Source: Eledone cirrhosa (Eukaryota). From it: a stretch of DNA of 64,000 nt. Position numbers and translations under genes: made by a program. The notes under the pieces were generated by a model, which ran no database searches, was not told the origin of the DNA, and worked only from the letters and a program-made list of their open reading frames with translations. Numbering within the stretch: the stretch's first letter is position 1; each line of letters starts with the position of its first letter. The DNA lies in NCBI GenBank assembly GCA_964016885.1, contig OZ024753.1, forward strand, positions 33,232,001 to 33,296,000, read 5' to 3'. Positions 10,738 through 64,000 of this stretch are shown here, piece after piece.

Positions 10738-10820
10738 AACAAAGTCAATCTGTAAACGCAGAAGTGGATATTTCAAAAAACGTTTCCCTCGGTTGAGCAC
10801 TCTATTGACTTATATTCATC

Positions 10821-12941
10821 ATGCAGAAACAACATCTGAATATTTCTACAAAGAATATACCGGTACCAAGCAGGAAAACATACCTAAAACTCCTGATACA
10901 GAAAACAGACGCGTTCATTAAAAGGTTGCGTTGACGTGCCTTTTATTTCGATAATCCGCGAAAAGCAGACAGCAAACAGGATAAATTTGTGTTTAAAACC
11001 TATAATAACCCCCCGTGTAACCCAGCATTGCTACCCTTCGAAAATGATGTCTTGGAACTCATACGGACTATTAAACTTCGGAATAGGAGCAATTCCTTCC
11101 AGCAGGACCGGAACAATAGAATTCGTTCTATTAAGGATTCTAATGCCGTGCACGTCCATTCCGACAAAACTGGCAACCTATATCAAGTGGAGCGCAGTAC
11201 TTACCATCAACTACTACATAATGCTGTAATTAAGGATTACCGTAAAACTAATCGGTGCGTCATCAATGAAATCAACGATGCTAGGTTTAAAATCACCTCT
11301 GATCTCAACATCCTGGACCGGACCGAACCCCTGGACCCTATTTCTCCCCACTTTACCCTGAAGGATCACCAATCCAATTTTCCGAACAACCCCTCTATTC
11401 GGCTTATTAACTCTACGAAGTCCGATTTAGGTAGACTTAGTAAAAGAATTTTTGATAGAATTATACCAGAAATTAGAAGTTTGGCCCCTCTTGCACTGTG
11501 GAATAATTCTTTCGCGGTGATTGATTGGTTCAACGGCATATGCAACAAGGAATATTGCCGTTTTATCCAATTCGACATCAACAATTACTACTCCTCCATC
11601 ACTTTACCACTTCTCCTTAGAGCTATCAAAACACTCACAGTGATTAAGGATTTCGAAGTTGATGTCATCCTCAATGCCTGTAAGTCGGTGATTAATTTCG
11701 ACGACTCTATTTGGATTAAAAAATCCAATAGTACCCCATTCGACGTGAGTATGGGCGCCAGCGATTCTGCAGAGGTTACTGATCTTATCGGCCTTTTCCT
11801 TCTTTTCTCTATCAAGGATGAATTCCCCAACGCTGGCGGTGGTTTGTACCGTGATGATGGTCATTTGACCATGACTAAGTGCGGACCTCGTGCTTGTGAC
11901 AGGTTCAGAAAAGAACTTACAGCCTTCTTTAAACGCTTCAACCTCTCTATACAGGTTGAGGCCAATCTCTCGGTCGTTAATTACCTCGACGTTACCCTCA
12001 ATTTATCGAATGGGTTGTATTACCCGTATAGAAAGCCGAATTATACGCTTAATTACATAAGTAAGCATTCCAACCATCCTGCCAGCATAACCAAGAACCT
12101 GGTAAGAAACGTTTCGTTGAGGCTTTCCCGTCTATCTACTAACGAGCATATTTTCAACGACCATTCCACTTATTACAATGAAGCTCTTGCTCGGAGTGGA
12201 TTTGTCGATAAGGTAGCATATACAGAGTACGAAAATAGACCTAGAAGACATAGATCCCGTCGCATTTGTTGGTATAACCCACCATATAATATGGAGGTGG
12301 CCACACCATTAGTTAAGATCTTTCTTTCCCTTATTACGAAGCATTTTGCCCCTACACATAAATATAGTAAAATTTTTAATAGAAATACTATTAAAATTCC
12401 TTACTCTACGACTCCTAACCTTCCACATAACATCACAGCTTCAAATTTAGCTAAACTACCTAGCTGTAGGAACACGTGCAACCCTGTAGTTAGTACTAAC
12501 TGTAATTGTAGGAATCGGGTTGATTACCCTCTATCCGGGAAATGCCTCTCTAGTAACATTGTCTACAAATGTAAGGTTGAAACACCCACGTCCCGTAGGG
12601 CCTACATAGGGTTAACCGCCAATAGATTCAAGCAGCGTCTTTACATGCATACCCATTCTTTTCGTTACCCTCTAAGAAGGAATATGACGGCACTTTCAGC
12701 TTATATCTGGAGTCTAAAAGACAACCACACCCAATATAAGTTACCCTGGGAGATCCTAGCTAGCGCTAGATCGTATAACGGAAATAAAAGACCATGTGAC
12801 CTCTGCGCCGCTGAGGCCCTGGAAATACTCTACGCCACAGACCACATCTTAAACAAAAAATCTGAGGCAATTTCGGCTTGTAAACATAAATTGCACAACA
12901 CTTTCCTGTATTACAGCCCCACGTTATACCCTAACGGATAG
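10821..12941 (+). pseudogene. PLE polyprotein (reverse transcriptase plus GIY-YIG endonuclease), ~706 codons with one in-frame TGA at 10932-10934
   Basis: The ATG at 10821 is in frame with ORF 10989-12941: MQKQHLNISTKNIPVPSRKTYLKLLIQKTDAFIKRLR*RAFYF. RT motifs FIQFDINNYYSSI, MGASDSAE, LYRDDG, YLDVTL. Linker CNCR....YPLSGKC. GIY-YIG NIVYKC..AYIGLT..FKQRL..H, then C.LC..E and LNKK.E..S.C.H. Confidence 0.9.
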
Positions 12942-13540
12942 TACGATCTATACGTGGATGTTTTACGTCTTGATGTGGTAGGTAAGTAAATGTCTTGTTT
13001 ATACCATTACTTATTTACATAGGTAAGTACATATTACCTGTATGTTTTGTGAAGGTACGTATACTTTCTCGTACGTATATTTGATTGTATATGTTATGGC
13101 GTATAATTTTTTATATATTCTGGTACATATGGTTCGACTATGTGTATACAGCAGTTTTGCATCTGTGTGAGTATGCAGGTTCGTACGTATGTAGGGTGTG
13201 TGTATATGTGTACTTCATGTTTTGGTTGACTTACGTCTCCGAACTTGTGTGTATTTACATGTAGGTATGTGTGTGCGTTCGTTATATACGTATTTATTTA
13301 TTTATATACGTTTATTTAATTATTTATTTATTTGTTACCACGCACGCACACACACACACACATATTTATATGTGCGTGGTTTTGTATACCTATGGCAAGT
13401 GTTTCCACGTATGCTTGTGTCTGTACGTATTTGCATGCGTGTATGTATTTATTTAATTTCTATTACCTCTGTATTGTATTTTATTTACTTTATTCTTAAC
13501 TCTGAAGCGGAGATTCATTCGGTTTCCTAGTTAGAAATTT

Positions 13541-13808
13541 ACTCTACGACTTCAGCTATACCATTTACATGGTTTTGTCTTTGCGTGCTATTGTTCTCCA
13601 CGCTCCACATATGACGTATTATCTTCGGTTTTTCCGTTCATTGCCAGAGAACATCTCTATGAACCACCTAAGAGAACATTAGTCTACGACTTCTTTTATA
13701 CCATAAACGTGGTTCTGTCTTTGCGCGTAATTGTTTTTCACCGCTCCTATTAATGACGCATTATTCGTTTTTTCCCGTTCTTTGCCAGCGAACGTTACCA
13801 CGAACCAA
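13541..13808 (+). repeat. Diverged ~140-bp direct duplication in the PLE 3' UTR
   Basis: 13541-13668 and 13681-13808 share TCTACGACTTC...TATACCA...GTCTTTGCG...ATGACG...CCGTTC.TTGCCAG...GAACCA. Confidence 0.8.
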
Positions 13809-13885
13809 AGTATCGTCTTCCTGTCTTCCTCCGGTTGCAACGTTTTTTGAAATATCCAGTTCTATGTTTACAGATTGACTTTGTT

Positions 13886-13936
13886 AGTTTCAGAAGATCC
13901 CGTTAAGGGTGAAAGCAGCGATTCTTTGCTTAAACT
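13886..13936 (+). ncRNA. Variant hammerhead ribozyme in the 3' pLTR
   Basis: agttt-CAGAAGA-tccc(gttaa)gggt-GAAA-gca(gcgattctt)tgc-TT-aaact, followed by AATAAA. Confidence 0.65.
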
Positions 13937-14045
13937 TTAATCTGTTATTTTAATAAATATTCGCTCTACGGTTCTTATATATATTTGATATATATTTATC
14001 CTTATCGAGCCCTCTTTGGATTTTAGTCTTCAAATTTATTATTAT

Positions 14046-14104
<59 letters not shown>

Positions 14105-14109
14105 TGTAC

Positions 14110-14148
<39 letters not shown>

Positions 14149-14281
14149 CTGACCTCAGATCGTTGAAGCTCACGGTGGAGATGACGATGGACCGTGACGA
14201 GTGGAGAGATGCTGTGTTGAATAAGACCCGTCCCACCCTTGCGAACAGGGAAGAGCGGACGTAAAATGATGATGATGATGA
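14149..14281 (+). mobile_element. RTE LINE family 2, 3' end. Longer copies at 38190-38510(-) and 35680-35830(-)
   Basis: Translates DLRSLKLT.EM..DRD.WRDAVL.KTRPTLA and ends CAGGGAA.AGCGGACGTAAAATG(ATG)n. Confidence 0.8.
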
Positions 14282-14882
14282 TATATATGCATGTACATAT
14301 ATATATATGTACATATATATATATATATATATGCATGTACATATATATATACAAACATATACATATATATATATATATTCATTTTTATTTTAAGGCATAA
14401 CAGTATTTGTTGCCAAAATAATATTGATTTTGCATAAGAGTAATTTATATGTAAACATTTTTTTAAGCCTTAAAATTCTCAAGAATAATTTCATAAAACC
14501 ATTATTTCTTTAAAATAATGTAATTTTTCATAACATTAGTTCATTTAATTATTTTCTTTTTTTTTTTTACTTGATTTCGTTTTCCACTTTATGCTGAGAT
14601 TTACACAATTTAGTTTTTTGATGCTAGTAAAAGGAAGAACATCTTCAAACTGAATTTCAAATTACCAGAATATCATTAAAAATTACAAGAATTCGATACA
14701 AACCAAACACACACACATGTATAGATGTACAAGGGCTAAGCTATGACTCTCTGTCTCTCTGTCTCTCTCTATATATATATGCACACACATTTCTGTGTAT
14801 AAACACATACATTTGTATCGGTATATACACATACAGAGACATACATACATGTATATGTGTGAATGAATGTGTGTATGTATGC

Positions 14883-14931
<49 letters not shown>

Positions 14932-16512: not shown

Positions 16513-16554
<42 letters not shown>

Positions 16555-16707
16555 CGTGTACATACACATACATATACACACACATTCACCATATTCACAT
16601 ATTTATATATACATACATATACATATATGCACACATATATTCATCATATTCACATATTTATATATAAATACACACACATTTATATATAAATACACACACA
16701 CACACAC

Positions 16708-16759
<52 letters not shown>

Positions 16760-16836
16760 TATATACTATTTTATATTATATAATACATATATATATGTCT
16801 AATATTATATTATATATGTGTGTGTGTGTATTAAAC

Positions 16837-16876
<40 letters not shown>

Positions 16877-17431
16877 TAGATATAGATAGATAGATATATA
16901 TAGATACAGCTGGTGTATTGTGTAGACTTATTAAGCAGAATCTATCATGGTACGTTTGATATATCACATTAATTTTAGAGCTGCTTTGTTCTAAGTTTGC
17001 AGACTTTCACAGTGATATTGTGATACTGCATCAATAGGCTTTTGGTAATAACCTATAGCACAGATACTGATAACAAATCTAATCTACAACCACCGCCACT
17101 GCCGCTACTAATGATAGTACTTAATATTACTACTAACATCCATCTATACTACTAATACTAGTACTACTACCATTATAACCACCAGCACTATTACATAACG
17201 ACCACCACCTTCACTACAACTGCTACTACTACTATTACTACCACCACCACACTACTATTATTACTACCTACTCCTACTTACTACATCCAACACTACTACT
17301 ACTATTAATAATTGTTTCTGATTTAAGCACAAGGCCAGGCCAGCAGTTTTAGGGGAAGGGAAATTCGATTAAATTTCCCCCTGTACATTACTGGTACTTT
17401 ATTTTATCGACCCTGTCAGGATTGTCCACTG

Positions 17432-17471
<40 letters not shown>

Positions 17472-19173: not shown

Positions 19174-19247
<74 letters not shown>

Positions 19248-22200: not shown

Positions 22201-22922
22201 CAATCCTCAAACTAAGATCAATAAATCTGTGTTTGATGTAACTCCATCCCTTAGAGAAGACATAAGATTTGTAATGTGTATCCATCTGCCACAGTATGAA
22301 AAGAAAAAAAGGAAAAAGAAAAAGAAGGAAAAAGAAAAAGAAAAAAAAAGAAAAAGAAAAAGAAAAAAAAAGAAATAAGAGAAGAAAAAGAAAAAGAAAA
22401 AAGAAAAGGAAGAAAAAAAGCTAAAAAAAAATAATAATAAATAAATATTCAAAAGTCCAAAAGACTTCAAGATCTGAAGAGGAAAAAAATTCAAATGGGA
22501 CAATGAGATCAGATAGAGAAGTCGCATGCAGAGAGAGGAAGGCGTGGTAATATGATTTCACAAAAGAGATGCTTTTTTTAAAGCACTGCCTGCCAATTAT
22601 TAGTGTTGTTGTTATTGTAGTTGTTACTGTGGTTGCTGTTATTGTCATAGGGAATCATATTTCTATTTGGAATTATATAGATTCTGAACTTGAATACAGA
22701 AGCTGAAGCCATGGAAATATGTTAAAGTATCATACAACACAGTTACAGAAATACATTCAATGCACACATTACATGTATATATATATATATATATATCCAT
22801 ACATATATATATATATATACATGCTGAATTTGCCGACGACATAGTTACAGAAATACATTCAATGCACACATTACATGTATATATATATATATATATATCC
22901 ATACATATATATATATACATGC

Positions 22923-23682
22923 TGAATTTGCCAACGACATAGTTTTGGTGACAAATACAGTGAAGGAGGCAGAGGATTTGATGCGGGAGGTTGAGACTGT
23001 GTCGATGAGTGTGGGGCTGAGAATGAATGAGACTAAAACAAAATATCTGGTAGAGAATGTTGAGAAGCCAGAGGGGATCACTAATGTAGGCGGGAAGCCG
23101 TTGGAATTGGTTGAGGACTTCCTGTATTTGGGAGCAAAGATTGGGAATACGGAAGATGATGTGGTTGAGAGGAAGAGCAAGGCCTGGGCGGCGTGCCACA
23201 GCTTGAGATCGGTGTGGAAGTCGGACCTTCGTAGAGACCTGAAAATCCGCCTCTTCATTGCTGTAGTGGAGTCTGTGCTGCTGTATGGGTCTGAGACTTG
23301 GACACTGACCAAGAAACTCACTCAGATGGTGGATGGGTGCTACACGAGAATGCTGAGGATGGCTCTGAACATTAATCAGTATACACTGAGGATGAAAAAC
23401 TCAGAGCTGTATGGGAGCATCCCAAAAGTCAGCTCAAAAGTGACACAGAGGAGACTGAGGTTGGCTGGACATGCTCACCGACATCCAGAGTTGACATTGC
23501 ACTCAATGCTCCTTTGGGAGCCCCTACATGGACACACTAGAAGAGGAAGACCAAGGTTAACATATGTTGATGCTCTAAGGACAGACACTGGTCTGTTGGA
23601 GATGCAGGATATGGCAGCGGGAGATGCAGGATATGGCTGGAGAGAACTCGTCCATGGATCTCGGGAATTTTACCCGCCTTAG
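22923..23682 (+). mobile_element. 5'-truncated RTE-like LINE (RT C-terminal half)
   Basis: FA(D/N)DIVLV, GLRMNETKTKY, VEDFLYLG, ESVLLYGSETW, RRLRLAGHAHRH, GRPRLTY. Ends at a (TA)n run. Confidence 0.85.
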
Positions 23683-23684
23683 AT

Positions 23685-23976: not shown

Positions 23977-24032
23977 ACTGCCTGATGAGGTCATAGCCAT
24001 TCAATGGCTATCATCGAAATATATATAACAGT
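23977..24032 (+). ncRNA. Type I hammerhead motif (one stem I mismatch)
   Basis: actgc-CTGATGA-ggt.atagccat(tca)atggctat.atc-GAAA-tatata-TA-acagt, then AATAAA and (TA)n. Confidence 0.75.
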
Positions 24033-24093
24033 AAATAAAGGATTATGAGTTCATGCAATTGACTTAGGTTTCGTCACTATATATATATATATA

Positions 24094-24469
24094 AATTTTG
24101 AGTATATGTTGGTTGTATACCAACACTTCAGTATGTAGATTGGAGCACTCGACGAAGTGCGCGGGTTGGTTTGGTTACTCCGGAGTAATGTAAAATAAAA
24201 TAAAATAACTAAGTCAAATGTTTAAAATTTGGCTTCGTTTATTACTGCTAAATATATTTCGGTGACAGCCATCTTTGGATGTGACCTCTTCAGGCAGTCC
24301 GAATTAGTGTGGTAGAGACGAGTACACATGTTGAGGTGTCGTCTCTACCACATTAATTCGGACTGCCTGAAGAGGTCACATCCAAAGATGGCTGTCACCG
24401 AAATATATTTAGCTGTAATAAACGAAGCCAAATTTTAAACATTTGACTTATTTATTTTATTTTATTTTA
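24094..24469 (-). mobile_element. Non-coding fold-back PLE-type element with two head-to-head hammerheads (24244-24298 on -, 24362-24416 on +)
   Basis: Arms 24191-24321 and 24339-24469 are near-perfect inverted repeats. Ribozyme reads actgc-CTGAAGA-ggt..acc-GAAA-tatatt-TA-gcagt. Unpaired tail 24094-24190. TA flanks. Confidence 0.88.
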
Positions 24470-38193: not shown

Positions 38194-38579
38194 ATCATTT
38201 TACATCCGCTTTTCCCCGCTTGCAAGGGTTGGATGGGTCCTATTCAGCACAGCATCTCTCCACTTGTCACGGTCCTTCATCATCTCCTCCGTGAGCTTCA
38301 ATGATCTGAGGTCTGCTCTCACCGCATCCACCCATGTTTTTCGTCGTCTTCCTCTACTGCGTCTTCCTTCTACTGGCATTTCTTGGCATTTCTTTACCCA
38401 GTGGTCATCCTCCATGCACATTGCATGTCCATACCATCACAGTCTTCTCTCCCGCACACTACAACTTATCCCTCTTAAACACAGTTTCTCTCTCAACACA
38501 TCCATGATCGGTCGTTCATATATATATGTGTGTATGTATGTATGTACGTGTGTGTGTGTATGTATATATATATATATAT

Positions 38580-40703
38580 CGAGGAGAATAAATGGGAGAA
38601 AGACAGTCTCCCCCATATCGACCCAATAGAGGGACCAGCAGTGTTAGTCGAGGGGAGTATAATAAGTAAGGCAATCAAGGATGTGAAGACGGGTAAGGCG
38701 GCTGGGCCTTCGGAAATAGTTGCTGAGATGCTGAAGGCATCTGGCACGGTGGGACACACCATGGTCACCCGCATAGTTAACCAAGTCGTACAGAATGGGG
38801 TTGTTCTGAAGGACTGGCATAGCAGCATCATCGTTAACTGTTATAAGGGTAAAGGAGACGCCCTAGATAGGAGTAACTATAGAGGCATTAAATTAATCGA
38901 CCAGGTCATGAAGGTCACGGAAAAAGTAATAGCGCAACTAATCAGAGAGAGAATTGACCTAGATGAAATGCAGTTCGGGTTTGTGTCAGGCAAAAGTACC
39001 ACAGACGCTCTTTTCATAGTACGACAACTACAGGAGAAGTACCTAGCTAAAGGTAAACCCCTCTACTTATCTTTTGTCGACTTGGAGAAAGCCTTCGACA
39101 GAGTCCCCCGCTCCATTATCTGGTGGGCTCTTAGAAAACTAGGCGTTGATGAATGGCTTGTGAGGGCTATACAAGCCATGTATAAAGAAACAGTCAGCAA
39201 GGTTAGAATTAACAACGAATATAGTGAAGAGTTTAGCGTAAAAGTTGGCGTCCATCAGGGCTCTGTTCTCAGCCCCCTACTATTTATTATTGTCCTTCAG
39301 GCTATAACAGAGGAGTTCAAGACAGGCTGCCCATGGGAACTCCTATACGCAGACGACCTGACACTCATAGCGGAATCAATGGCCGAGCTAGAGAAGAAAT
39401 TCCAAACATGGAAGCACGGCCTAGAGTCAAAATGACTTAAAATTAACCTGGCTAAGACCAAAGTACTAGTTTGTAGGAAAGAAAACAAGGCGGCGGTCCC
39501 TTCTGGGAAATGGTCGTGCTCGGTGTGTAGGAAAGGCGTAGGTAGAAACTCCATTTTATGTCCTAAATGCAAAGTATGGGTGCATAAAAGATGTAGTGGG
39601 ATCACAGGTAAGCTAACTAAGAACATAGATTTTACATGTGGCCGGTGTTCTGGTGCAATAAGTAGCAGCAAGTGCCCACAAAATACTAGCTCTTTCAATT
39701 GCGCAGAGGGTTCTATAGAAATAGTGGACAGCTTCCGTTACCTGGGCGATAAAATCAGCAGTGGGGGAGGGTGCTCTGAAAGTACTGTAGCTAGAGTCAG
39801 AACTGGTTGGAAAAAGTTCAGAGAGCTTATACCACTATTAGCTGCTAAACGGTTCTCCCTAAAAATGAAAGGCAGTTTGTACGATGCCTGCATACGAACA
39901 GCAATGCTGCATGGCAGTGAGACCTGGGCATTGTGTGCAGAGGATATACGCAGACTAGAGAGGAATGAAGCTTGCATGCTCCGCTGGATGTGTAGCAGTA
40001 ATATACGTGAACGGCAAAGCATAAACGAACTAAGGAAAAAATTAGAGATAAGAGGGATCAGATGTTGTTTACTCGAGAGAAGGCTACGTTGGTATGGACA
40101 CGTGATGCGCATGAAAGTCGATAGCTGTATAACAAAGTGCAGGGCAATAAAGATAGACGGTAGTCACGGAATAGGCAGACCTAGAAAAACCTGGGACGAG
40201 CTGATAAACTCCGACATCACACACTTACACCTCTCCAAGACAATGTCACTGGACCGAGACCTTTGGCGGTACTCAGTAACAGAGAAGACCCGCCTTACCT
40301 AAATATATAGTAAAACCTACTCCAGCCAGTAGGCATCTCTAACAAAATACACCCCGTCCCACCACCACCACCACCCCCACCCCATCCACACCACCCCGTT
40401 CTATGTAAAGTTATATTGGTGCCGCGCCATCGAGGCCGAAACAAATGAGATCCCGTAGGTGTCACGACAAAAAAACACACAGTCCACGCTGTAATGTGGC
40501 CGTGTAGGCAACACGGTAAAAACCTCCCAGACCCACACTGTAAATGTGGTTGGTGTTAGGAAGGGCATCCAACTGTAGAAAACCTGCCAGACAGTCCTAT
40601 GCGAGCAAGACAATCACTCTTGCCTCAAGTGGGACTACCCACGTCCAAACCCATGCAAGCGTGGAACACGGACGTTAAACGTTGATGATGATGATGATGA
40701 TGA
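38580..40703 (+). mobile_element. 5'-truncated RTE-clade LINE (family 1): RT domain with a PHD-type finger, 3' UTR and (GAT)n tail. One in-frame TGA at 39433-39435
   Basis: ORFs 38530-39435 and 39523-40302 are in the same frame. Motifs KAAGPS, NYRGIKL, QFGF, FVDLEKAFD, GVHQGSVLSP, LLYADD, FRYLG, GSETW, LRWYGHVMRM, GRPRKTW. Confidence 0.92.
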
Positions 40704-42715: not shown

Positions 42716-43080
42716 TTTAGGTTTGTTGGTTCACCACTGGATAGAACTGGTCATTCCATATGGTCAATCTCAATGTAATATTATGGAGAGTACTCAACAT
42801 AATGCAACTCACCCGTCTTCGTCTGTGTAGTTGGTGGTGCGAGTACGGAGTTAATTATTAGGGCGGCCGACTGAGGTAGAAGCTGCTAAATAGTGGGTCG
42901 TCCTCCTGTCTCTGATTTTCAGCCCCATGGATTTTATCTGTTATATTCCTTTGTTATATTTTGAATACCTGATGATATCACCGGATTCATACTGAACCCG
43001 GTCATTGAAATGATCATAGTATAATAAACATTTCAAGGATTTACACCAGTCCAGCCTCCTGTTATTTTATAATTATTATA
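42716..43080. mobile_element. PLE-type mini-element: reversed tail (42716-42857) fused to a forward pLTR with a hammerhead at 42965-43022(+). Same family as 59843-62199
   Basis: atac-CTGATGA-tat.accgg..ccggt.att-GAAA-tgatca-TA-gtat-AATAAA. 42716-42857 is the reverse complement of ~62060-62200. Confidence 0.85.
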
Positions 43081-43640: not shown

Positions 43641-44408
43641 TATATATATATATATATGCGCACGTATGTGTGTGTGTATAATGTATTGTATGTTTGTATG
43701 TATATACGTATGCCTGTCAATATGGTTATTCCTTGGAACCTTGCCTGTAGAGAATTTTACTGTTAACTGCATAGTTAACAGTTCAACAATTATTGATTCT
43801 TTAACGATTCTCCTTGGTCTATTTTACATTGTAATTACCTGTGTATTCTTTACAAATAGTTTTTTCATCTATGTTGTACATATATTCCTACACAGCCATC
43901 ATTTTACTGCACTCCCACATTTCTTCTCTTCCCCTCCTTTTTCAAAAGGTGACATCTCTAAAATAACAATTCTTATGGAGTTTAGAACTTTTATTCTGAA
44001 AATTGAATTAGTAGAGAAATAGCATACGTGATATTTCAATGTTGCCATTTACAAATAACATGTTTCTGTCTTTTGTGACATTATATTTATTTTATTTTAC
44101 TTTATTTTATTATTATTTTGTTGGTGATTGAGGAAATATTTTGAAAAGTGTATAACATTTTATGTTCATATTTTTTTTTAGAATTCTCTACCCCTTTAAG
44201 AAAATCAAAATAGTTTATATATTATATATATATATATATATATAAATGCATACACACTCACACACATATACATATAGATATTAATTTGCATATGTGTTAG
44301 TTAATCACCGACACTTCAATATGCAGGTGGGTCTGTTTACTCCAGAGTATATTAATAAACATGAAGTATAAGTCAACAGGTTAACATTAGCTTCGTTTAT
44401 TCAGAGTT

Positions 44409-44467
44409 GCTGTTATATATATTTCGGTGATAACCGTTATGCAACAGCAATAACCTCATCAGACAGC
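44409..44467 (-). ncRNA. Intact type I hammerhead (element ~44292-44480, related to the 23977 and 24244 family)
   Basis: Reverse complement reads gctgt-CTGATGA-ggttattgctgtt(gcat)aacggttatcacc-GAAA-tatata-TA-acagc. Confidence 0.85.
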
Positions 44468-47400: not shown

Positions 47401-50400
47401 TAATCCCCAAACACATACACACACATTCATAAACAGCCACCTACAATCACACATATACACACACACATGGAGACACACCAACACAATCATCCCTGAATGT
47501 ATATACTCCTCCCTCATCATAAACCTACACACTCACACAGACACACTAACATAATTGTTATACAGTTGCATACTCCTCCTTACTACAAACACACAATACC
47601 AACATAATTGCCACAACATGTACGTACATCCACCTCTCTCGCTCTCTCGCACACACACTCAAACACACACACACACAATGATAAAGACACATATAGGTGT
47701 GTGCATAACGACAAAATTTCCTGATTTCTAACCAGTGAGAGTTGACAGGATTAAAGGGAGATTACAAGAAACGTAGTTTAAGTGTCCTTATTGCTGTCAC
47801 AAAAAGCTTTCAGCTGTTGTTTTCCCTCTAATTATTTTAGACAGAATCAAATATTTTCATATATGTTTCTCTTTTATTTAATAATTACATTTATTTTTCA
47901 CACTTTACATAATTTTTATTTCTTTTAAATTATTCCTGGATATTTTTTTAAACTGTTGTTTATGTTATGATGTGACACTGACAGGAAAATCTCAACTGAC
48001 TCTTTTAGTATACGCAAGATTTGTTGTTATTTTTTAATGTTATTTAGGAGGGTAAATTGGTGGAGTTGTTGAAGCTTCAGTTTAAATCTTTTTTGTATTT
48101 ATTCTAGTTCTCTGTGTTATGATTTCAAATCCCACGAAAGCCGACTTTCCCTTTCAGAATACTACCCAGAATCATCATCATCATATTACATCCATTTTCT
48201 ACACTTGCATGGCTTGGACAGGTTGTTCTGGTCTGAAACTACATTGGTTGGTGAACCACCACTTAACTCTGACAATTCATATTTGGCATTGTTTCTATGA
48301 CTGGATACACCTTCCTAATGCCAGCCACTTTACAAAGTGTATATATGGATATGTAACTACTGATTGAGTTGTCAGGGCACATTAGTGACATTTAGTATGT
48401 CTGGGGAATTTTAAACATCCTGAAGGCCATCAACTTTCCAGGTCTGAGCACAGCTGGCTTCTTTCAGAGAAAGGGAGAATGAAAGGGAAGGAGAGGATGT
48501 GAGAAAAAGTTATAGTGGAACAATCAACCCTGGTACTTGACTGGTACTTTTTTTATCAACCTTGAATGAATGACAGGCAAAGATGACTGCAGCAGTTTTT
48601 GAACAGAGGATACAGAGAGCTCTGAACAAGAATGAATACCTGAAAACATTCTATCTGGCCTTCTAATGATATACAAAGTGTATTAGTGAATCTTATGATC
48701 ATAATAAAGAACAACACTACAACACAGAATGGTAATAATAAAGATGAGTGTTATGAGTGTTATGTGAGTTAAAATAATGGTACAACTAATTCTAGTCTTC
48801 ATTTTTTTTTAGGATTGATAAACTCAATACCAGTCAAATCAAATTAATTCCTTAAACAATGACAAATTCCTAAAGCCACAATATATACTTTTCAGCATTT
48901 GTTTTTATGTAAGTGACATCCAAACGAGTATCCTCCACTATCAACAAAATTACCCTCCACCTCTGGGTCCCACATATGTATGTCTTTACAAATGTTTTTT
49001 ATTTATTTATATATATCTCTGCATACTCCAATGTCTTTAGTAGTGATGAGATATTGTAACACATACACACACAAATGTGACAGTTCTAATATGTTTTATG
49101 ACTGTTCATTGATACATACACTTATTTTGATGGGATTAAAAACAACAAAAATTTTTAAAAAAGATCCTGTTGAGGTCAAGTGTTTTCTGGGGATTTTTTT
49201 ATATATGTCTACTAATCTGAAATAAATCTTTAATCCAAGTACATGTAGTTTGGTTTTAATTTTTTTTTTTTTTGTGAGTGGGGGCTGTTATTTGTTATTT
49301 CATCTATATAGCTTTTTTTTGTGAGTGGGGGCTGTTATTTGTTATTTCATCTCAATAGCTTTTGTATTTTATCAGATTCTGAGAAAATAGTGTAGGAATA
49401 AATGCCTTACGCTTTTTGTTCCTTGTTTTGGATCTCTGGACACTGAGTTCAAATCCCATCAAGGTTTGCTTTGCCATTCATCATTTTATGGTTAATAAGT
49501 TAAAGGAGAATTTAATAGGAGTGGATTGGAAGGATTATTGAAGTATCAGATGAGATATAAAAATAGAGAAATAGATGGGTAGACATTTATATATATATAT
49601 CAGGATGGATTCAGCTTGAAACTGGTGAGACCATTTCTCAACAGAGCACTTTGGGTAGTAGAGTATGGTTATATTATAAAGAGTCGGGACTCCAACTCTT
49701 TATATGTAATACTCATGGATGATGATTGATAGGTGAAAAAGTACCAGGAAATGCCAGTGGGGCGAAGCCACAGTAGAGGTAGACCAAAAAAGACCTGGGG
49801 GAAGAGGTGGGGAGAGCTGAACTCACAGAGGAGCTAACGAAGGAACACAGCGAGTAGAGAGATGCTGTGCTGAGAAAGACCCATCCAACCCATGCAAGCA
49901 CCATCATTTTTACGTCCGTTTTTCCACACTTGCATAGGTTGAATGGGTCCTTTGCAACACAAAAAATTAGTTGTAACGGTAATCATGTCACAGAATGTGT
50001 CACACTGAATCCCCCTGAGAATTACATTAAGGATACAAATGGCTGTGAAATGTTCTGCTTCTTACATATTAATTTCCTGAGCTGGCTGTTTCATTGTTCG
50101 AACAACTGGAACGCATGTTGTCAAAAAGGACGGACATCCAGCAACACATATACATAGATTAGGGTGGTGGTGGTGGAAAGGGTGATGATCATGGATCATG
50201 TTGATGATGATGATGATAATGACTGATTATTCTAGTATTTCTAGCTATCACTGAAGAATGAAAATGATTATGAGGATTGTGGTAATGATCATTATCATCA
50301 ATATCATAATCATCGTCAACATCATCATCATCATCGCCATTCTCATCATCATCATCGCCATTCTCATCATCATCATCATCGCCATTCTCATCATCATCAT

Positions 50401-51443: not shown

Positions 51444-51493
<50 letters not shown>

Positions 51494-53843: not shown

Positions 53844-54260
53844 TTGTAGGAGTTCTATTTAAATTGTTGGGATACAACAAGCAAATATTTTTTATAACTG
53901 ATATAAAGCACTCAACAAATTATTGGAGTAAAACTACGATATATTAACAAATGGAAACTATATTTATAAAACCATATTTATTTCATTATACATATTTCAA
54001 GGACACCAAGTTAAATTATGGTGTGCTTTCAGCAGATAAAATATAATATAGAGCAGTTTTATAAATAAATATTGACATACCCTTAAAGAATGCAACCATT
54101 TCTGTTGGAAGCTCCCAGGTAGTTATTTATTTATAAAACTGCTCTATATTATATTTTATCTGATGAAAGCACACCATAATTTAACTTGGTTTCCTTGAAA
54201 TATGTATAATGAAATAAATATGGTTTTATAAATATAGTTTCCATGTGTTAATATATTGTA
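53844..54260 (-). mobile_element. Fold-back PLE-type element with two hammerheads (53982-54040 on -, 54155-54213 on +)
   Basis: Arms ~53936-54071 and 54125-54260 are inverted. Ribozyme reads tttat-CTGATGA-aag.acacca..tggt..ctt-GAAA-tatgta-TA-atgaa. Tail 53844-53935. TA flanks. Confidence 0.87.
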
Positions 54261-54274
54261 TATATATATAAACA

Positions 54275-55057: not shown

Positions 55058-56947
55058 GCGTGTGTGTGTATATATGTATATGGTCGGGTTTGTTGGCGAC
55101 TAAACTGGCAACCTCACCGAGGTTTCTTGGTAAGGAGGGTGACTTTGGACATCCTGCAGGACTAAAAACAAAACCTGTCAAAGGGCAAAAGAGCTCTTAA
55201 GAGTAAATGGCCATCCAAAATCACCGGGAGAGATGACTCCTTAGCCTTTGTCAAGGCAGAATTCTAGGAGAAGGAAAACTCTGATATAACACCTGCAACC
55301 CTGATGGTATCCAATGATGTTGACTTGTTCTTCTTTTTGGTAAATATCATATTGGTTAAGAGAGTGGGACTGGCTTTGTGCAGTGCCTTTGCTCACTATA
55401 AAAGCTTCACGGCACAGGCATTGCTTTATGTCTGGAGATCTCTCTGCACTTGTCACATAGTACCATGGGCCCAAAACTATGTGTCAATAATTGTCACAAA
55501 TGTAGTGTTTGTACCAGAGTACAAGTCGTTGGCTGGACTAAAAAGTCACACACGTTCAGCGCATCGGTAGGGGTTCTCCTACATGGATATAAAGTAGTGG
55601 CCGTACTCGAAAACGAGTTGGCAGCCACCATATGTATATATAAACATACATATACATATATATATAAATATATATAAACATGTATATATATATAAATATA
55701 CATATATATATAAGTATATATGTATGTATATATAAACATACATACATATCATCAACATCATTTTACATCCAATTTTCCCTGCTTGTAAGGGTGGGACAGG
55801 AACGTATTCTGGCTTGATTTCTACAGCTGGATGCCCTTCCCAACACCAACCTCATTTACAGTGAGTGCTGGGTGTTTTTTTACCATGGCGCCTACATGTC
55901 CACTTTACAGTGTGGGCTGGGTGCTTTTTTGCTGTAGCACCTCCACGACCATTTTGCAGTGGAATGATAGGGACCCCAGTCCCTATCATCTCATTTCTAC
56001 AGCTGAGTAAACTGGAGCAATGTGAAATAAAGTGTCTTGCTCGAGGAAACAACGCTATATATACACATTCGTATATACAAACATACATATATATATGTAT
56101 ATATAAACATACATAAACATACATACATATATATATATTTATACATGTATTCATACATATATATACATATATGTACATACAAACATATGGATATGTATAA
56201 TCATCATCATCATCATCAATGTTTTACATCTATTTTCCATGGTTTAATGGTTTGTCACTTTCAGTGGCTTGAAAGGTCAGATGACTCCATCTCACTTTTA
56301 CATTTCTATCTGTCTTAGTTTCTATGACTGGATGTCCTTCCTGACACTAACATCACAGCATCTATTAGGGTGGGAGCATTTTAGCAAGGCATCAGCACTA
56401 CCCCTTTGCCTGGTGTGTGTGTGTGTGTGTGTATATATATATCATCATTCATCATCATCATTTCATTTTACGTCCGCTTTTCCCTGCTTGCAAGGGTGGG
56501 ACGGGAACTGATTCTGGCTTGATTTCTACAGCTGGATGCCCTTCCTAACACCAACCTCATTTACAGTGAGTGCTGGGTGCTTTTTTGCCGTGGCACCTCC
56601 ACGACCACTTTGCAGTGGAATGATAGGGACCCCAGTCCCTATCATCTCATTTCTACAGCTGAGTAAACTGGAGCAATGTGAAATAAAGTGTCTTGCTCAA
56701 GGAAACAACACATCACCCAGTCACAGAATTGAACTCACAACCTTTCGATTGCAAGGCCAATGCTCTAGCCACTAAGCCATGTGCCTCCATATATACATAA
56801 CCAAGAGTTTATATGGTTCGTTGATTATTCAACAAATTCAATTTTACAATAGATTAGAAGCACTCAACAGTAATTTATCTGAAGTATTTATAATATTATT
56901 CAAAATATCAATAAATAAAAAAATATTCTCATAACCAAAATATATAT

Positions 56948-57004: not shown

Positions 57005-57067
57005 ATATATGAGAGATTGGATATGCGACATACTCCTAAGGTTTTGAATTTTCAATTCCTGTAGTGG

Positions 57068-57101
<34 letters not shown>

Positions 57102-57211
57102 GTAATCTACACTCTACTTTCCCAAGAATCGGGTACTCAGCTGAAGAATGGTCATACTAGTTTAAGCTGGTAACCCTCAATCTATCTATCTATCTATATA
57201 TATATATATAT

Positions 57212-57423
57212 ATAGGAAAATGTTCAAGACCCCGACGGCAGAGCTCAAGCTGTTTCAACGGCTATTTCGGCGGCTATTTCAGTTCAGAAAAGCCGTTGAA
57301 ACGGCTCGAGCTCTGCCGTCGAGGTCTTGAACATTTTCCTATTACCCACTCTACTACCCTAAGTATTGAGTACTCTGGTGCATTATGGTCCACCTGGTTC
57401 CTTACCACACTTCCTTCATTATC
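57212..57423 (+). mobile_element. GC-rich fold-back element retaining only the 3' half of a hammerhead
   Basis: Arms 57212-57263 and 57291-57342 are inverted. GAAA-cggc(tcgagctct)gccg-TC. Tail 57343-57423 contains GAGTACTC. Confidence 0.75.
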
Positions 57424-59842
57424 TATATATGTATATATACTTGCCATAACTTCATACTCATCTCCCTTCAATCACTTTTCCCAGTACCACAGAGGGCTAT
57501 TCGTTTGTGCCACAAAAATGCACTCGGTCACTATGTAAGGTGGTTGGTGACAGGAAAGGCACCCCATTGTAGAAGCCATGCCTAAAGTGGGTTAAGAGGG
57601 CCCTTCAGTTGTGTCATGGCATGATAACCTCTCTAGTGTTGGTAATTTTCATGATGAATGCACTCAGTACATAATGTAAATTGGTTGAATGATAGAAAGG
57701 GTATTCAGCCATAGAAAGCTTGCAAAGAAACAGGTTCTAAGGACCTAGAATTGTGTCAAAGACACGACAATACCTCATGTACTGGTGCACTTGGTTGAAC
57801 ATGAGACCGAATGAAAGAGGTATGTATATCCCCACCCTGTGTGGGAGCTCAGTAGCCACATTCCAGTACTGACTTGGTCTATCAGGTAAAGCAGACATTA
57901 AATGAGGATGATGATGTGTATATATATTCTAGGTGTGTACGTATGTGTATGGGGGTGGGGGAGGGGTTTCTAGAATACACACAGCTATAAATTACTGAAA
58001 ACATCAACACCAATATTACTAGATAAAAATTAGTTTGAAATGGAACTAAAATATTCTCATCTTATTCCCTATACAGAATATCTTGGTGTGTGTGTATGCA
58101 TAAATGTGAATGTATATAAATGTGTGTGTGTGTGTATATATATATCATTAATTATGTGAGACTGTTTGTTGTTTCAAGATTTGTTGTTTGTGGGCAAATG
58201 CCTGATGCAGTTCATTTTTGTTAACATAAATATATATTTTCTTTGGCCAGCAAGGAAGATTGCTTTTGGTTAAAAACCCCAATGTTAACGCGTGCAGCAA
58301 TTTTACTATCATAAATTCAATTAACTTTGAATCTCCTCAGGGTCAGAGAAGTTGGATTCTGTATGTTTTAATCAGTGAAGGTTATATTCCATTTTCTTTT
58401 TTTATAATGTCTTATCTTGCATTGACCGAAAAAAGAAATGTAATTGAGATTTATTATACATATTATTAGAATGAAATAATTTGGGAGTGGTGTGGGATGG
58501 CTGGACGGTTAAGATATTTGCTTCACAATCTTGAGTTTTAGGGTTTGGTGCTACTGCATGGCATCATGGACAAGTTTTTTCTACCATAGCTTTAGGTCAA
58601 CCCAAGCCTTGTGTGTATAATGCACTCAATACACTGTGTAGTGTGATACTGCTGGTGCTACAATAAATTGTTCTCAGCATACGCAGTAGAGTGGTAGTTT
58701 AGGTGCCGCAATAAAATGTACCTAATACATTCTGTAGAGTTATAGTGCTGGGGCCATGATAAAAAAGGCAATCAGTATGCTCTGTAAAGTGGTTAGAATT
58801 AGACAGGGAGAAACCATGCCTAAATATGCAAAATACAAGCAAATTGTGGTTTTCTGACCCATCTAGTCACAGACCATGAGGGAATTTTCAACCTTTGCAA
58901 GTATGGAAAGTGGATGTAAAATGACAATGATAATACTATATAAAAAATGGTTTCTAATTTAGGCACAAGGCCAACAATTTTTGGGGAAGGGAAAGTTGAT
59001 TAAATCAACCCCACTGTGTTACTGGTGCTTTATTTTATCAATACTGTAAGGATGAAGAGCAAAGCTAACCTCGGTGGGATTTGAACTCAAAACGTAAAGG
59101 GACATAACTATATGCTGCAATTCATGCTGCTCGATGCTCTACTGCTATTGCCAATACACCAAGAATAAAAGTAAATAATATTGAATTTATAAGACATATG
59201 ACAAAGATTATAACAGTTTAGCATTATAAAGAATCTGCTTTAAAATGTTGTGAGATAATAGTTTATGTAGTTCTGAAGAAACTTACTGCAGAAGACATTT
59301 TGGGGAGAAATAATCTGTATCAGAGAAATATGCTTATTCTGATATTCGTCTCATATGTCAGACATGGATAACAATACATTCAATGTATTTATGTATGAAC
59401 CCATAACGCCTGATGGTGTCATAGGAACAGCATACAGATGTTTAGAGCATTTTAATTTTAAACCTGGCAGTGTGTGTGAACAGAGAAGAAGAGCATGTGA
59501 TATAGAGGAAGTAAGAAATAAAGAAATATAGAAGTAAAATCAACTCCAGTATTCAACTGGTATATACTTATCAACTTCAAAAAGATGAAAGTCAAAGTTG
59601 ACCATTACAGGTTTTGAACTCAGAATGAATACTATAAATCGCCATCGTTTACTGATTGGACTGTTGCATATACAGCCCGGTTGGTCCCCATCTTATACGA
59701 AATTATACACTTTGTTATGATGATGATGATGATGATGATAGCACTCTGAGACAGGTTTTTGCTTGATACAAGCTTATACTATATCTAATTCAGTGAGTAG
59801 ATTATAGCTAATAATATAAACTTGTCTATATATATATATATA

Positions 59843-62199
59843 TTATTATAAAATGATAGGAGGCTGGACTTGTGTAAATCCTTGAAAGGTTTATTATACT
59901 ATGATCATTTCAATGACCGGGTTCCGTATGAATCCGGTGACATCATCAGGTATTCGAAATATAATAAGTGAATGTAATAGATAAAATCCATGGGGCTGAA
60001 AATCAAAGACCCGAGGACGACCGCCATCCAGCATCTTCTACCTTTGCCGGTCGCCCTCAAGTGACATGGCTAAAGCTTACAGTGTGCTACTACCGGTCAA
60101 ATAAAGGAAAACAGAAAGGAATAGGAACATAAGTCAGCGTTAATATCATGCCACAAGAAAAAAGAAAGAAAGAAGAGAGAAGAAAGGGGAAGGAAGAAAA
60201 GGAAGAAGAAGAGAAGTCAGGGTTAATGTCAGCTATAAGAAGAAAGACAGAAAGAAAGAGGAGGAAAGGTCGGTATTACAGTCAGGCCAGGAATGTCGTG
60301 AAAAAAATTTATTCTAAGGGACTCACTTGTACCCATTAGCACACGACACTAGAATGTCTCCCCCTGAGAACAAAAATAAATATTATCCGACTATACCCCT
60401 TACTCTACATCCCACTAGGATAACTTATAGAGGATCTATATAATAAAATTAACGTTTCTTCATAAAAGACTCTCTTTAACTAAACCCCGCAACCCAAAAC
60501 CTTAAAAAAGTTTTTTAAATGTTTAATTTTCAATTTTCTATTTGTTCAATTCTCAATCTTCTTACTCTTGAATTTTATAATGTTATTCTGAATTCTTTCA
60601 ACTTCATCCTATAAATCTAAACAATATTTTAACGTTCAAACTTTCTGTCGGACTGTTGGGTTGGTTTTCCTGGCGGCGGGACTGCGCCCCTGGCGCATAG
60701 GCCTACCTTGAGTGCTTGGAAAAATAAATTTCCCCTTCTTTCGGTAAATGAAACTACTCGGAGTGGCTTGATTCGCCCCAGGGACCCAGTGCGCAGCCGG
60801 TTTTTTGACCGCCATATAGTACCTTTAAATTACAGATCAAATCAGAACTATTAGACGTATTACGCCTTCCTCTACTTAAGCAAATCCCCCTCCTGGGTAA
60901 AGGAATAGTACTGGTTTTGTACAAGGATGGCCTAACGATGCAGGCTGACTTCCTGCTGGCGCAACTGAAGCCTGTTATACATTCCTAGAGTGCTCGGAAA
61001 AATCGATTTCCATATCTTTCGCTTGGCGATATCACTCGGAGTGATGGGCTACCCAAGCTTGTAGTCGCCGCATGCTGTTTGACGGCTAAACAAAGACAAT
61101 CTTTACTCTATAATAAAATTTAAGTGTCTTCATAAAAGACTCTTTCTTTGCTTAAACCTTGCAACCTTAAAAATGTTAAACTGTTTAACTTTCAATTTTC
61201 TAATTTCTTTAATTTTATAATGTTAATATTAAATATAAATTTGTTAACTTCATCCTATAAGTCTAAACAGAAATGTAACGTTCCAATATTCTGCTCACAC
61301 ATTATAACATACAGACCCCCCACTATATTTACCTCTGCTAAGATACGGGCCCCTTTGAAAATATTTTTTTCGGGCCATTCCTGGCCTGACTGTAGTCTGA
61401 CATTAATATCGACCTTTCTTCCTCTTTCTTTCTATCTTTCTTCTTGTAGCCATCAACCCTGACTTTTCTTCTTCCTTTTCTTCCTTCTCTTCTCCCTTTC
61501 TGTCTTTCTCCTTGTGGCATGATATTAACGCTGACTTATCTTCCTCCCCCTTTTTGTTTGCCTATATTTGACCGGTAGTAGTTGTTAAGATACGGGTCCC
61601 TTAGAATAAAATTTGTTCGTGACATTCCTGGCCCGACTGTAATACCGACCTTTCCTCCTCTTTCTTTCTGTCTTATAGCTGACATTAACCCTGACTTCTT
61701 CCTTTTCTTCTTTCCCCCCCTCTTCTCCTTTCTTTCTGTCTTTTTTCTTGTGGCATGATATTAACGCTGACTTATGTTCCTATTCCTTTCTGTTTTCCTT
61801 TATTTGGTAGTAGCACACTGTAAGCTTTAGCCACGTCACTCGAGGGCGACCGGCAAAGGTGGAAGGAACAGAATAGCGGTCGTCCTCGGGTCTTTGATTT
61901 TCAGCCCCATGGATTTTATCCATTACATTCACTTATTATATTTCGAATACCTGATGATATCACCGGATTCATACGGAACCCGGTCATTGAAATGATCATA
62001 GTATAATAAACCTTTCAAGGATTTACACAAGTCCAGCCTCCTGTCATTTCATTATAATATTTAACTCCGTACTAGCACCACCAACTACAAAAACAAAGAC
62101 GGTTGAACTGCTTTACGTTGAGTACTCTCCAGATTATTACATTAAGATTGACCATACGGAATTGACCAGCTCTATCCAGTGGTGAACCTCAAACCTAAA
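59843..62199 (+). mobile_element. 2.36-kb ORF-less PLE-type element with ~480-bp inverted pLTRs, two hammerheads (59896-59953 on -, 61947-62004 on +) and a 140-bp tail
   Basis: 59843-60323 is the reverse complement of 61596-62058. Ribozyme reads atac-CTGATGA...GAAA-tgatca-TA-gtat. Internal direct duplications. TA flanks. Confidence 0.88.
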
Positions 62200-62221
62200 T
62201 ATATATATATATATACATACA

Positions 62222-62650
62222 AGAGGAAGCTTAGTAAAATCGAAAGTTTGGCTGTGGCCAAGCAAAGTTGACCTACAATAAGGAATGAGTAGCAAAGCAC
62301 TCAATAAGGGTAGGTCCTTAGAGGGATAACATACGTTTAAATAGCTTGAAAAATTGATAGATAATAGATAGATATTAGATATTAATTTAACAATGAAAAG
62401 AATAACAACAAAGTCAAGTTATTTTACCTATTCATATTGTTTATGATATGAATAGATAAAATAACTTGACTTTGTTGTTATTCTTTTCATTGTTAAATTA
62501 ATATCTAATATCAGACTCTGTATCTAAGGAATTAACTCATCAGAACAAGGAATGTTTCTATGGATTTCATTGGATTACTTGCTATCAGATTACATTGAGT
62601 TCTATCTATGGTACGGACCCTACCACGAAAGGTAAACCACATAGAAAAAA
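62222..62650 (-). mobile_element. PLE-type remnant with an internal 67-bp fold-back and half a hammerhead
   Basis: 62371-62437 and 62446-62512 are inverted. CTGATGAG on the minus strand at ~62536-62543. AAGCACTC at 62295. Confidence 0.65.
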
Positions 62651-62662
62651 AAAATATATATA

Positions 62663-62905
62663 TATATATAAACAAATAGTAGAAAGGAAAAAGATATTTT
62701 CAGTAGAAAATGTTTAAGAGATTCTTTCAGTGTAATATCAAAACATTTATTTATTTATAAAGAGGATATTTCCGCATTTGATAATGGGTTTGATATTACA
62801 CTGAAAGAATCTCTTCAGCATTTTCTACTGAAAAAATCTTTTTCCTTTCTACTATTTGTTTTTATATATATATATCAACGTGTGTGTTTCTTTCCTACAT
62901 TCGAG
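62663..62905 (+). mobile_element. Fold-back element in (TA)n with a short tail
   Basis: Arms ~62663-62743 and 62789-62875 are inverted. Tail 62876-62905. Confidence 0.75.
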
Positions 62906-62929
62906 ATATATATATATATATATATATAT

Positions 62930-64000
62930 GTAGGAGGTGAGTTTTATTGTAGTACAATAAAGCAATGCAGATATCGGATAAGAAGCACTCTACAGTTTGT
63001 GGGACTGGAGTATGCATAATATAAGATCAAAAGATGGTTAAAGGAGTTCAATATATTTTATTATGCGCATTTCAAAAACAAACATCATCAAACAATAATA
63101 TTTGTGTTTTCATCAGATAAAACAGGAGAACATGATATGAAGGCTAAAAAAACACTTGTTGATAGTGCAGTTTTAAATCAACATATGAAAAGTGGTTTTA
63201 GATTGATGTGTGATATTGGGAAAAATATTTTATTTAGAGAGGGGGGGAGAGAAAAGGATGAAAAGGGAAGGAGATGAGAGGGAGAGATGGGTGATAGAGA
63301 GAAAGAGATAGTTTTTATAACAGAGAGGAGATATATTTTATATAGAGGGGTTGAAAACCGTTGGAAGATACTGTATAAATTAAAAATTTTGAAAATTAAC
63401 GAAGGGAGGATATGTGCGAGGAAAAAATATATTATATTTAGGGAGGGGTGGGGGTGGAAAGGATGAAAAAAAGGGGAGGAGATGAGAGTGAAGGTGGAAA
63501 GGGAGAGATGGGTGATAGAGAGAAAGAGATAGTTTTTATAACTGAGAAAAAGATATAATGTTTTAATATAGAGAGATTGGGAACCGTTGGAAGATAATGT
63601 ATAAATTAAAGGAATTTGAAAATTAACGAAGGGAAATTATGTATGGAGATAGAGAGAAAAAATAACGAAGGGAGATTATGTATGGAGATAGAGAGAAAAA
63701 AAAAAAAAATAATAATTGTGGGTGAATATTCAAAAGGAGAAATGTAGGAATTTTAAAATTAGCAAAGAGAAAAAGTTTATGTATAGGATTTGAGAAAAAT
63801 AATGTGAAGTTAGAGTTTTTATATTGAATTCATATGTATTAATAATGAGTTCGTTGATGGGGAGAAAAAAATAATAATAAATTAAGGATGAAATTGAGAT
63901 TAAAAAGATTTATGATAGAGAGAAAAAATAATAATGATTGCGGATGAATACTCAAAATGTCAAAAACAAATGTTATTGTTTTACGAGGAGATATAATGAG
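62930..64000 (-). mobile_element. 3' end of a long PLE-type element running off the window, with an intact hammerhead at 63057-63121(-) and internal tandem repeats
   Basis: Reverse complement reads tttat-CTGATGA-aaa.acaaatattatt(gttt)gatgatgtttgt.ttt-GAAA-tgcgca-TA-ataaa. ~63222-63430 is repeated at ~63431-63650. Confidence 0.8.

Follow-up and report, generated by a model that had tools for sequence, protein, structure and literature searches.

What is a conserved octamer doing in the tails of mobile elements that cannot be aligned to one another? The question is raised by a 64,000-nt stretch of the Eledone cirrhosa genome (GCA_964016885.1, contig OZ024753.1, positions 33,232,001 to 33,296,000; below, the window). 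An original prediction, made from the sequence alone, had reported a GAGYRCTY quasi-palindrome in the 3' tails of unrelated hammerhead ribozyme elements and just ahead of the ATG of a coding Penelope-like element (PLE). The 8-mers cited were located in 13 of 13 cases, several of them on the minus strand. As a stand-alone palindrome the word was only half seen: GAGYRCTY is the 3' arm, with four trailing bases, of a predicted bulged hairpin (RCTC-stem-loop-stem-2 nt-GAGY), and the upstream RCTC arm and inner stem are needed as well. Judged by sequence comparison, it is a genuine, clade-wide cis signal of Hydra-clade PLEs, which paired bulged hairpins describe better than a palindrome does. We consider it probable, if well short of certain, that two such hairpins in tandem (H1 and H2) each bind the reverse transcriptase (RT) and position it so that copying starts just 5' of the helix.

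The ends of the elements were classified first without regard to the motif. We clustered 1,879 TA-adjacent ends, end-anchored and blind to the motif; single-linkage on motif matches had merged families. The families show two end types, a short one about 40-70 nt past the hammerhead and a long one that extends a further 60-180 nt, so two discrete end points are present with a tail between them, a trait of internal initiation as in PAc. Among 138 inverted end pairs at the same locus, 94 were asymmetric, 35 symmetric and 9 intermediate. Motif-bearing families contributed 141 short and 141 long ends, and their 86 two-ended insertions were long-short in 77 cases (a share that may lean high, as family labels were set from asymmetric insertions), short-short in 9 and long-long in none. 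An inverted copy with a one-sided tail is a PLE layout already described in the available text of PMC8557442.

Within this layout, RCTC stands just past the short-end junction and pairs with GAGY, an inner stem and a bulge of mostly 2 nt lying between the two arms. The fixed distance is thus to the short end, upstream of the motif, and not to the terminal TA, for which a spacing of 35-75 nt had been proposed. Nor are the carriers separate ribozyme elements: they are mostly 5'-truncated ends of coding Hydra-clade PLE families, and the families tested run on into Hydra open reading frames (ORFs). Not every hammerhead-bearing insert has the motif: it is missing from two hammerhead pieces, at 23982 (+) and 44462 (-). 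The second of these (44298-44462, -) retains an ACTC arm and has lost its GAGY arm through a deletion; the first (23982-24077, +) resembles a lone short end.

Positional enrichment over background is modest in the window alone, where 6 of 22 strand-wise GAGYRCTY matches lie 25-80 nt ahead of a (TA)4 run, a count reached by 1 of 400 permuted motifs. It was confirmed, and proved strong, in a genome sample of 138 evenly spaced 10-kb stretches (1.38 Mb) outside the window. Among the first 60 of these (600 kb), 40 of 119 motif sites are placed 25-80 nt ahead of a TA run against a background of 6.5%, and none of 400 permuted motifs reached 40 (best, 23); the full sample gives 98 of 276 sites. The description of the families as unrelated holds in part. 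The signal does span non-alignable families, and the ten tail sites of the window reduce to about 5-6 independent groups: 42788 and 62120 are one family (88% over 133 nt); 53906 can be aligned to 56858 (71% over 108 nt) and, weakly, to 62983; and 49644, read by eye, belongs to the 57368 family as a copy whose hairpin has a short deletion.

Evidence for the hairpin comes from long-end clusters that were defined by their inverted short partner, again blind to the motif (33 clusters, 85 insertions). A hairpin starts 6-15 nt past the called junction in 16 of the 33 clusters (40 of 85 insertions). The mean for shuffled tails was 0.2, with no more than 2 in any of 300 trials; reverse complements gave 0, and windows shifted by -150 to +30 nt gave 0-2. 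No two of the 16 passing representatives align at E<=1e-3, so the hairpin is not limited to one family; two of them have a common short-end cluster. The inner stems differ in sequence among families and keep their pairing. A swap test that made no selection on the stem found complete pairing in 12 of 27 motif clusters, where exchange of the 5' and 3' halves between clusters would lead one to expect 1.9 (p=1e-4); of 96 motif sites far from TA runs, 2 pair completely. The outer pair, scored in 54 copies, is A-T in 43, G-C in 10, G-T in one and A-C in none, and the first three inner pairs (n=162) comprise 137 Watson-Crick, 11 G.U, 2 A.C and 12 other combinations. A shared cis signal is thus supported across non-alignable families; covariation disfavors the promoter option that had been offered for it, and an RT-related role is what we infer below.

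The trailing RCTY is common yet dispensable: the full 8-mer is present in 9 of 16 H1 and in 6 of 9 further hairpins (15 of 25), with a self-complementary centre (TA or CG) in just 3 of the 15. A palindromic double-stranded DNA (dsDNA) site was rejected, given that 10 of 25 hairpins are without the 8-mer, the centre is rarely self-complementary and the partner arm covaries. One narrow hairpin sub-pattern has 29,561 plus-strand matches in the genome and 3 for the reversed control. Scanning for RCTC..GAGY without regard to position was not informative: the pattern reads identically on both strands, and 257 matches had a 2-nt 3' bulge, against 143-246 for control arms.

Each family examined carries two tandem hairpins ahead of the ORF, H1 just past the short end and H2 just past the long end. 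In the tandem copies L002, L010 and L014 the long end is followed by H2 and, after it, the ATG. Four clusters, those of the coding family and three more, happened to show H2 past the long end, as do L093/L127, in which both hairpins end in TTAA. For three families H2 was predicted beforehand, the query holding RCTC only, or nothing of the hairpin. In the 57368 family, the long end leads into TATCTA-GCTC, a 4-bp inner stem, TA, GAGC-ACTT and a Hydra ORF at 10 of 12 loci; one other locus enters a TA run after the 5' arm and one is unrelated, and two adjacent loci overlap. The 53906 family has H2 and a Hydra ORF at 12 of 12 loci (11 distinct; two with a mismatch). In the third predicted family H2 is GCAC-loop-GTGC, a double change, and is intact at 7 of 12 loci. 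Three families combine an ACTC/GAGT H1 with a GCTC/GAGC H2 within the same element. H2 lies 18-70 nt ahead of the ATG, at a varying distance. Judged by eye, H1 and H2 could form 6-8 of 8 pairs through the palindrome in five families and none in two, and pairing of the two hairpins by this route was rejected.

Raw reads of restriction site-associated DNA sequencing, from three runs of one study, were placed on the L002 leader. Among the matches listed, reads run into TA repeats mainly at 723 (2,223-2,794 reads) and 811 (526-757). The GCTC arms of L002 start at 726 and 815, so that the reads join TA 2 nt ahead of H1 and 3 nt ahead of H2. In seven standard-helix H2 leaders the template at the long junction starts with TAT (6 of 7) or ATA (1 of 7), triplets that make up 9% in tails generally. 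Thus, a nicked (TA)n end could anneal there.

Judged from its motifs, the coding element of the window (10665-14048) appears to belong with the Hydra clade. Its ORF includes RLRWRAF (the RWR variant) and SDKTG (DKT in place of DKG). The translation of L003, one 709-aa ORF, reads as an RT with YRDD and a C-terminal YIG motif, and includes CNCRNRADC (CxC-X5-C linker), CDLC (CxxC) and CKH (CxH); CCHH was not seen by eye. The Hydra clade of C-terminal endonuclease-bearing (EN+) PLEs, as characterized in the available text of PMC8557442, is alike in RW(R/K), DKT, CxC-X5-C, the lack of CCHH and (TA)n targets, and in having an inverted truncated copy and a one-sided tail; its members carry a hammerhead in the pseudo-long terminal repeat (pLTR), where the coding element has a hammerhead-like core. 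Coding and motif-bearing families alike insert into (TA)n. A Pfam scan of the coding ORF returned no significant family. At 3,383 nt including the inverted piece, the insertion exceeds the length of generally under 3 kb given for Hydra elements, a soft feature in PMC8557442. The nearest matches outside the genome have about 40% identity, with ends that read like Hydra-1_Amil by eye; many further Hydra families occur in the sample at 40-55% protein identity, and the genome holds 28,328 first-look candidates for the coding ORF.

The octamer ahead of the ATG of this element (10795) proved to be H2, cut by the 5' junction of the window copy; the intact copies L002, L010 and L014 have GCTC..TT-GAGC-ACTC there, 18 nt before the ATG. 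In a small, selected sample of nine copies that reach the ATG, three have the 5' junction inside H2 and one has it at the long junction. An occupied H2 may be a place where copying stalls or switches. Among the best 150 of 225 matches in an Rfam scan of the window there was no hammerhead, only chance microRNA matches on TA repeats. Canonical CTGANGA..GAAA hammerhead cores are present in several families of the genome. CAGAAGA replaces CTGANGA in both window copies (13891-13914, +; 10716-10739, -) and in L002, and the abundant coding family may spread without a canonical ribozyme.

How would one hairpin at each end act? For PAc, a PLE of the anole, the available text of PMC11167929 shows that the RT begins in vitro at the same sites where genomic copies end, and that it requires RNA 3' of these starts. 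If the junction is likewise the RT start in Hydra elements, each hairpin would seat an RT just 3' of the start. Read-through RNA would carry, in order, pLTR, hammerhead, H1, tail and H2, and two RT molecules, probably a dimer, would be seated on H1 and H2 of one RNA. The endonuclease would nick both (TA)n strands, and each 3' end would anneal to a short UAU/AUA patch at the junction. Each RT would then copy 5'-ward, the hairpin escaping copying by its own priming event, and H1 would appear only in the H2-primed copy, as the "tail". Two cDNAs, often short, would be joined head to head to give a fold-back with a one-sided tail. The 35-75 nt between motif and terminal TA would simply reflect the family-specific H1-H2 spacing. 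The lack of long-long insertions suggests that both seats of a single RNA are occupied and that the two ends are not chosen independently. A broader proposal is possible, although we lean slightly against it: that paired RNA hairpins form a two-seat docking code of Hydra-clade PLEs, older than the cnidarian-bilaterian split, in which a dimer would place one RT on each hairpin of a single RNA, each priming from one strand of the target at a short patch next to the helix that is complementary to TA, in the way that telomerase aligns with its template.

The positional data would be fitted equally well by cutting. The GIY-YIG endonuclease (EN), or a host enzyme, might bind the hairpin in single-stranded sense DNA or RNA and cut a few bases 5', which would define the copy end. 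By analogy, the bacterial GIY-YIG enzyme SsnA binds a single-stranded DNA hairpin and cuts a few nt upstream with the same geometry (PMC11893778, available text). Craig et al. put the tail down to EN-mediated resolution (PMC8557442), and Penelope EN needed the tail in plasmid DNA, as cited by Frangieh et al. (PMC11167929). We nevertheless regard cleavage as unlikely, though worth keeping in view, because target-primed copying should place the junction at the RT start, as demonstrated for PAc (PMC11167929), because a DNA cut would demand an extra ligation to the target, and because three families have fixed G.U pairs, which slightly favor RNA. Use of the 8-mer as a dsDNA promoter or host transcription-factor site for the next tandem unit is a good deal harder to accept. 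The two commonest forms, GAGTGCTC and GAGCACTC, are indeed mutual reverse complements, and the word is presumably similar to NK2 homeodomain sites. H2 sits 18-70 nt ahead of the ATG, and PLE pLTRs carry promoters (cited in PMC11167929 and PMC3846280). A promoter would account neither for the complementary arm 7-70 nt upstream and the inner stem that covaries, nor for the variants GCAC/GTGC and GAGC-TTAA or the fixed distance to both ends.

The location of the hairpins in the 5' leader of the ORF would also suit a part in translation or RNA folding (ribosome entry on hammerhead-cut RNA, or a hammerhead switch), with proximity to the ends due to some other reason. In Hydra-2_Amil and Hydra-2_Ajap, hammerhead stem III is ACTC/GAGT, the same helix as the hairpin base (PMC8557442, available parts), and a ribozyme-hairpin strand swap is conceivable in these families. 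Against such a role, which we judge very improbable, are the presence of two copies, each within a few bases of one end, the varying distance from H2 to the ATG, and a stem III sequence that differs in families of the present genome. That several cited sites come from the same or related families might suggest an inherited, functionless word, or chance. Yet there are 16 non-alignable representatives, the ORFs of families are only 40-55% identical, compensatory changes occur, and the same word is found in coral and sea-cucumber elements; this explanation, largely refuted by the motif-blind and swap tests, is scarcely credible.

Several observations weigh against positioning of the RT by a conserved pair of hairpins, in addition to the possible lean in the long-short share. 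The hairpin test failed in 17 of 33 clusters; these include chance repeat pairs, nested neighbours, two mis-called junctions and other PLE-type ends, and not all were assigned. Several hairpins are weak (-2 to -6 kcal/mol), and the minimum-energy fold differs or is without the bulge in about 6 of 23 representatives. RNAalifold found no consensus pairs on a MAFFT alignment of 13 hairpins, because differing loop lengths left the 5' arms unaligned. The spacer between junction and helix is not constant, measuring 2-3 nt in one family and reaching about 10 nt elsewhere, and the GCAC/GTGC type of H2 is without inner stem and bulge. Among published Hydra consensi, the Hydra-1_Amil hairpin is imperfect and Hydra-1_Obim has no clear hairpin by eye (PMC8557442, supplement). 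PAc primes at a site not homologous to the target, unlike the annealing step proposed here (PMC11167929, available text).

The range of the signal was examined within the genome and beyond it. In nine other end clusters of the genome sample, 0 of 84 ends have the motif. Three of the nine adjoin ORF fragments that we take, from their motifs and by adjacency, to be Neptune-like, Nematis-like and Poseidon-like. A tie of one motif family to Nematis-like ends was rejected, since it involved 1 of 6 members only, a nested neighbour. Other fold-back families with short and long ends have an ACAC/GTGT-type tail word, and may hold their own start signal. Of the 7 loci returned by a metagenome scan, five are the same locus in different assemblies, a coral-like Hydra element with ACTC..CT-GAGT just past the hammerhead. 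The six Hydra consensi of the PMC8557442 supplement, read by eye, include three with a clear hairpin (coral, sea cucumber), two with a variant and one without. Hydra-1_Ajap has two GCTC..GAGCACTC hairpins at its start, before the ATG, Hydra-2_Ajap and Hydra-2_Amil have one at the end, and Hydra-1_Crog has GCCC/GGGC at the start with an imperfect copy at the end. From these comparisons, the predicted hairpin is present in many non-alignable families and several animal phyla.

Features of the window, and related loci outside it
Feature	Position	Strand	Remarks
Inverted truncated pLTR of coding PLE	10665..10785	-	at short end (no tail) against (TA)n; 94.7% over 113 nt to 3' pLTR, 90 nt shorter at end; inner boundary by eye
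H2 remnant	10786..10802	+	loop, TT bulge, GAGCACTC; 5' arm lost at 5' inversion junction of copy
Hydra-clade PLE ORF (RT and C-terminal GIY-YIG)	10821..12941	+	stop at codon 38; 93% identical to open 709-aa copy L003
Hammerhead-like 3' pLTR core	13891..13914	+	non-canonical CAGAAGA start; from sequence
H1 of coding PLE	13963..14014	+	GCTC..TC-GAGC, then CCTC; few nt past short-end junction; long end at 14048
H1 in long end of fold-back insertion 24094-24467	24143..24186	-	ACTC arm, 6-bp inner stem, TC bulge
H1, fold-back copy of 62120 family	42788..42851	-	
Decayed H1 of 57368 family	49644..49664	-	short internal deletion; by-eye comparison with family copies
H1 in long end of fold-back insertion 53845-54256	53906..53929	-	family elsewhere runs into H2 and Hydra ORF
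H1 related to 53906 family	56858..56885	-	5' arm ACTT (G.U pair)
H1 in fold-back insertion 57215-57423	57348..57375	+	very abundant family, elsewhere runs into H2 and Hydra ORF
Two internal GAGTGCTY copies (60710, 60988)	60710..60995	+	in 60-nt internal duplication; no RCTC arm
H1 in long end of 2.4-kb insertion 59844-62198	62064..62127	+	H2 past long end in L126
H1 with mismatched first pair (CCTC)	62295..62324	-	5-bp inner stem; by eye
H1 downstream of hammerhead 63116-63070	62983..63011	-	
Tandem-array loci of 57368 family	C1:91476605-91487267; C1:437200343-437210965		
ACAC/GTGT-type fold-backs	L127:8201-8495, L080:6855-7284, L043:6253-6559, L035, L048		one beside Neptune-like ORF fragments

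Among the other features of the window, the 2.4-kb insertion has Hydra-type short and long ends around a non-coding interior of nested duplications, in which no match to Hydra protein was found. It is perhaps a non-autonomous passenger RNA copied via the two hairpins. The two octamers in its interior, which the original prediction had counted with the rest, are present; given the missing upstream arm, a role as end signals is not supported. The abundant 200-bp stubs of the 57368 type derive from a coding family that also occurs in tandem arrays with a period of about 3.5 kb. GAGAACTC at 23642 is a chance near-match inside a LINE-type-looking ORF fragment (LINE, long interspersed nuclear element). 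The translations of fragments 22828-23682 (+), 38479-40302 (+) and 2068-2673 (-) resemble LINE-type reverse-transcriptase ORFs.

Much of this has precedent. The elements, hammerheads, inverted ends and tails are already known; the hairpin and the rule of one hairpin per end were not found in the literature searched, which excluded subscription papers and Repbase reports and was available in part. The words "hairpin", "stem-loop" and "palindrom" are absent from the main text of PMC8557442, though consensi of its own carry the hairpin, on which the available text does not remark. Tails in the present genome measure 60-180 nt, compared with 30-40 in Craig et al. 2021 (PMC8557442). The closest mechanistic likeness is to PAc, of the Poseidon clade (Frangieh et al. 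2024, PMC11167929), which has two internal RT starts with the tail between them; the present proposal shares with it the cutting and extension of both target strands, the need for RNA 3' of the start and a predicted dimer. PAc differs in being a single element of another clade, with a start in an AC-rich stem loop inside the ORF, and the available text reports no conserved repeated signal or one-signal-per-start rule (PMC11167929).

The SsnA/NTS system is similar in its GIY-YIG domain, a hairpin with a required base after the stem and a cut a few nt 5'; SsnA is a bacterial single-domain nuclease with no RT, and so a mere analogy for cleavage (PMC11893778, available text). Short hammerhead repeats tied to PLE pLTRs are also known as animal non-LTR retrozymes (PMC7229834; bioRxiv 10.64898/2026.07.22.740005). 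Those are tandem non-autonomous units, whereas the present pieces are mostly fold-back stubs of coding families, and the available retrozyme texts do not describe the hairpin. Identity with non-LTR retrozymes was rejected, as the families tested continue into Hydra ORFs and occur as fold-backs. In LINEs, short interspersed nuclear elements (SINEs) and R2, a 3' stem-loop RNA structure recruits and positions the RT; there the structure itself is copied, with priming at the RNA 3' end. The Hydra signal differs in lying 3' of an internal start, in not being copied by its own event and in being doubled.

Internal start-site choice, the one-sided tail and the inverted ends of PLEs are features for which the literature calls for a mechanism (PMC8557442 and PMC11167929, available text). 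If the two-seat docking code is true, it would yield the tail, the inverted pLTR and the fold-back stubs by one rule, and any RNA with both hairpins could be inserted at (TA)n. A helix of 4 bp with a bulge of 2 nt, present at both start points and preserved among families and phyla, is a minimal, mutable substrate with sharp predictions, and the hairpin gives annotators a means to call the ends of Hydra elements where these are very abundant. PLE RTs are the closest retroelement relatives of telomerase RT. Thus, a rule by which RNA positions the enzyme would bear on the origins of telomerase.

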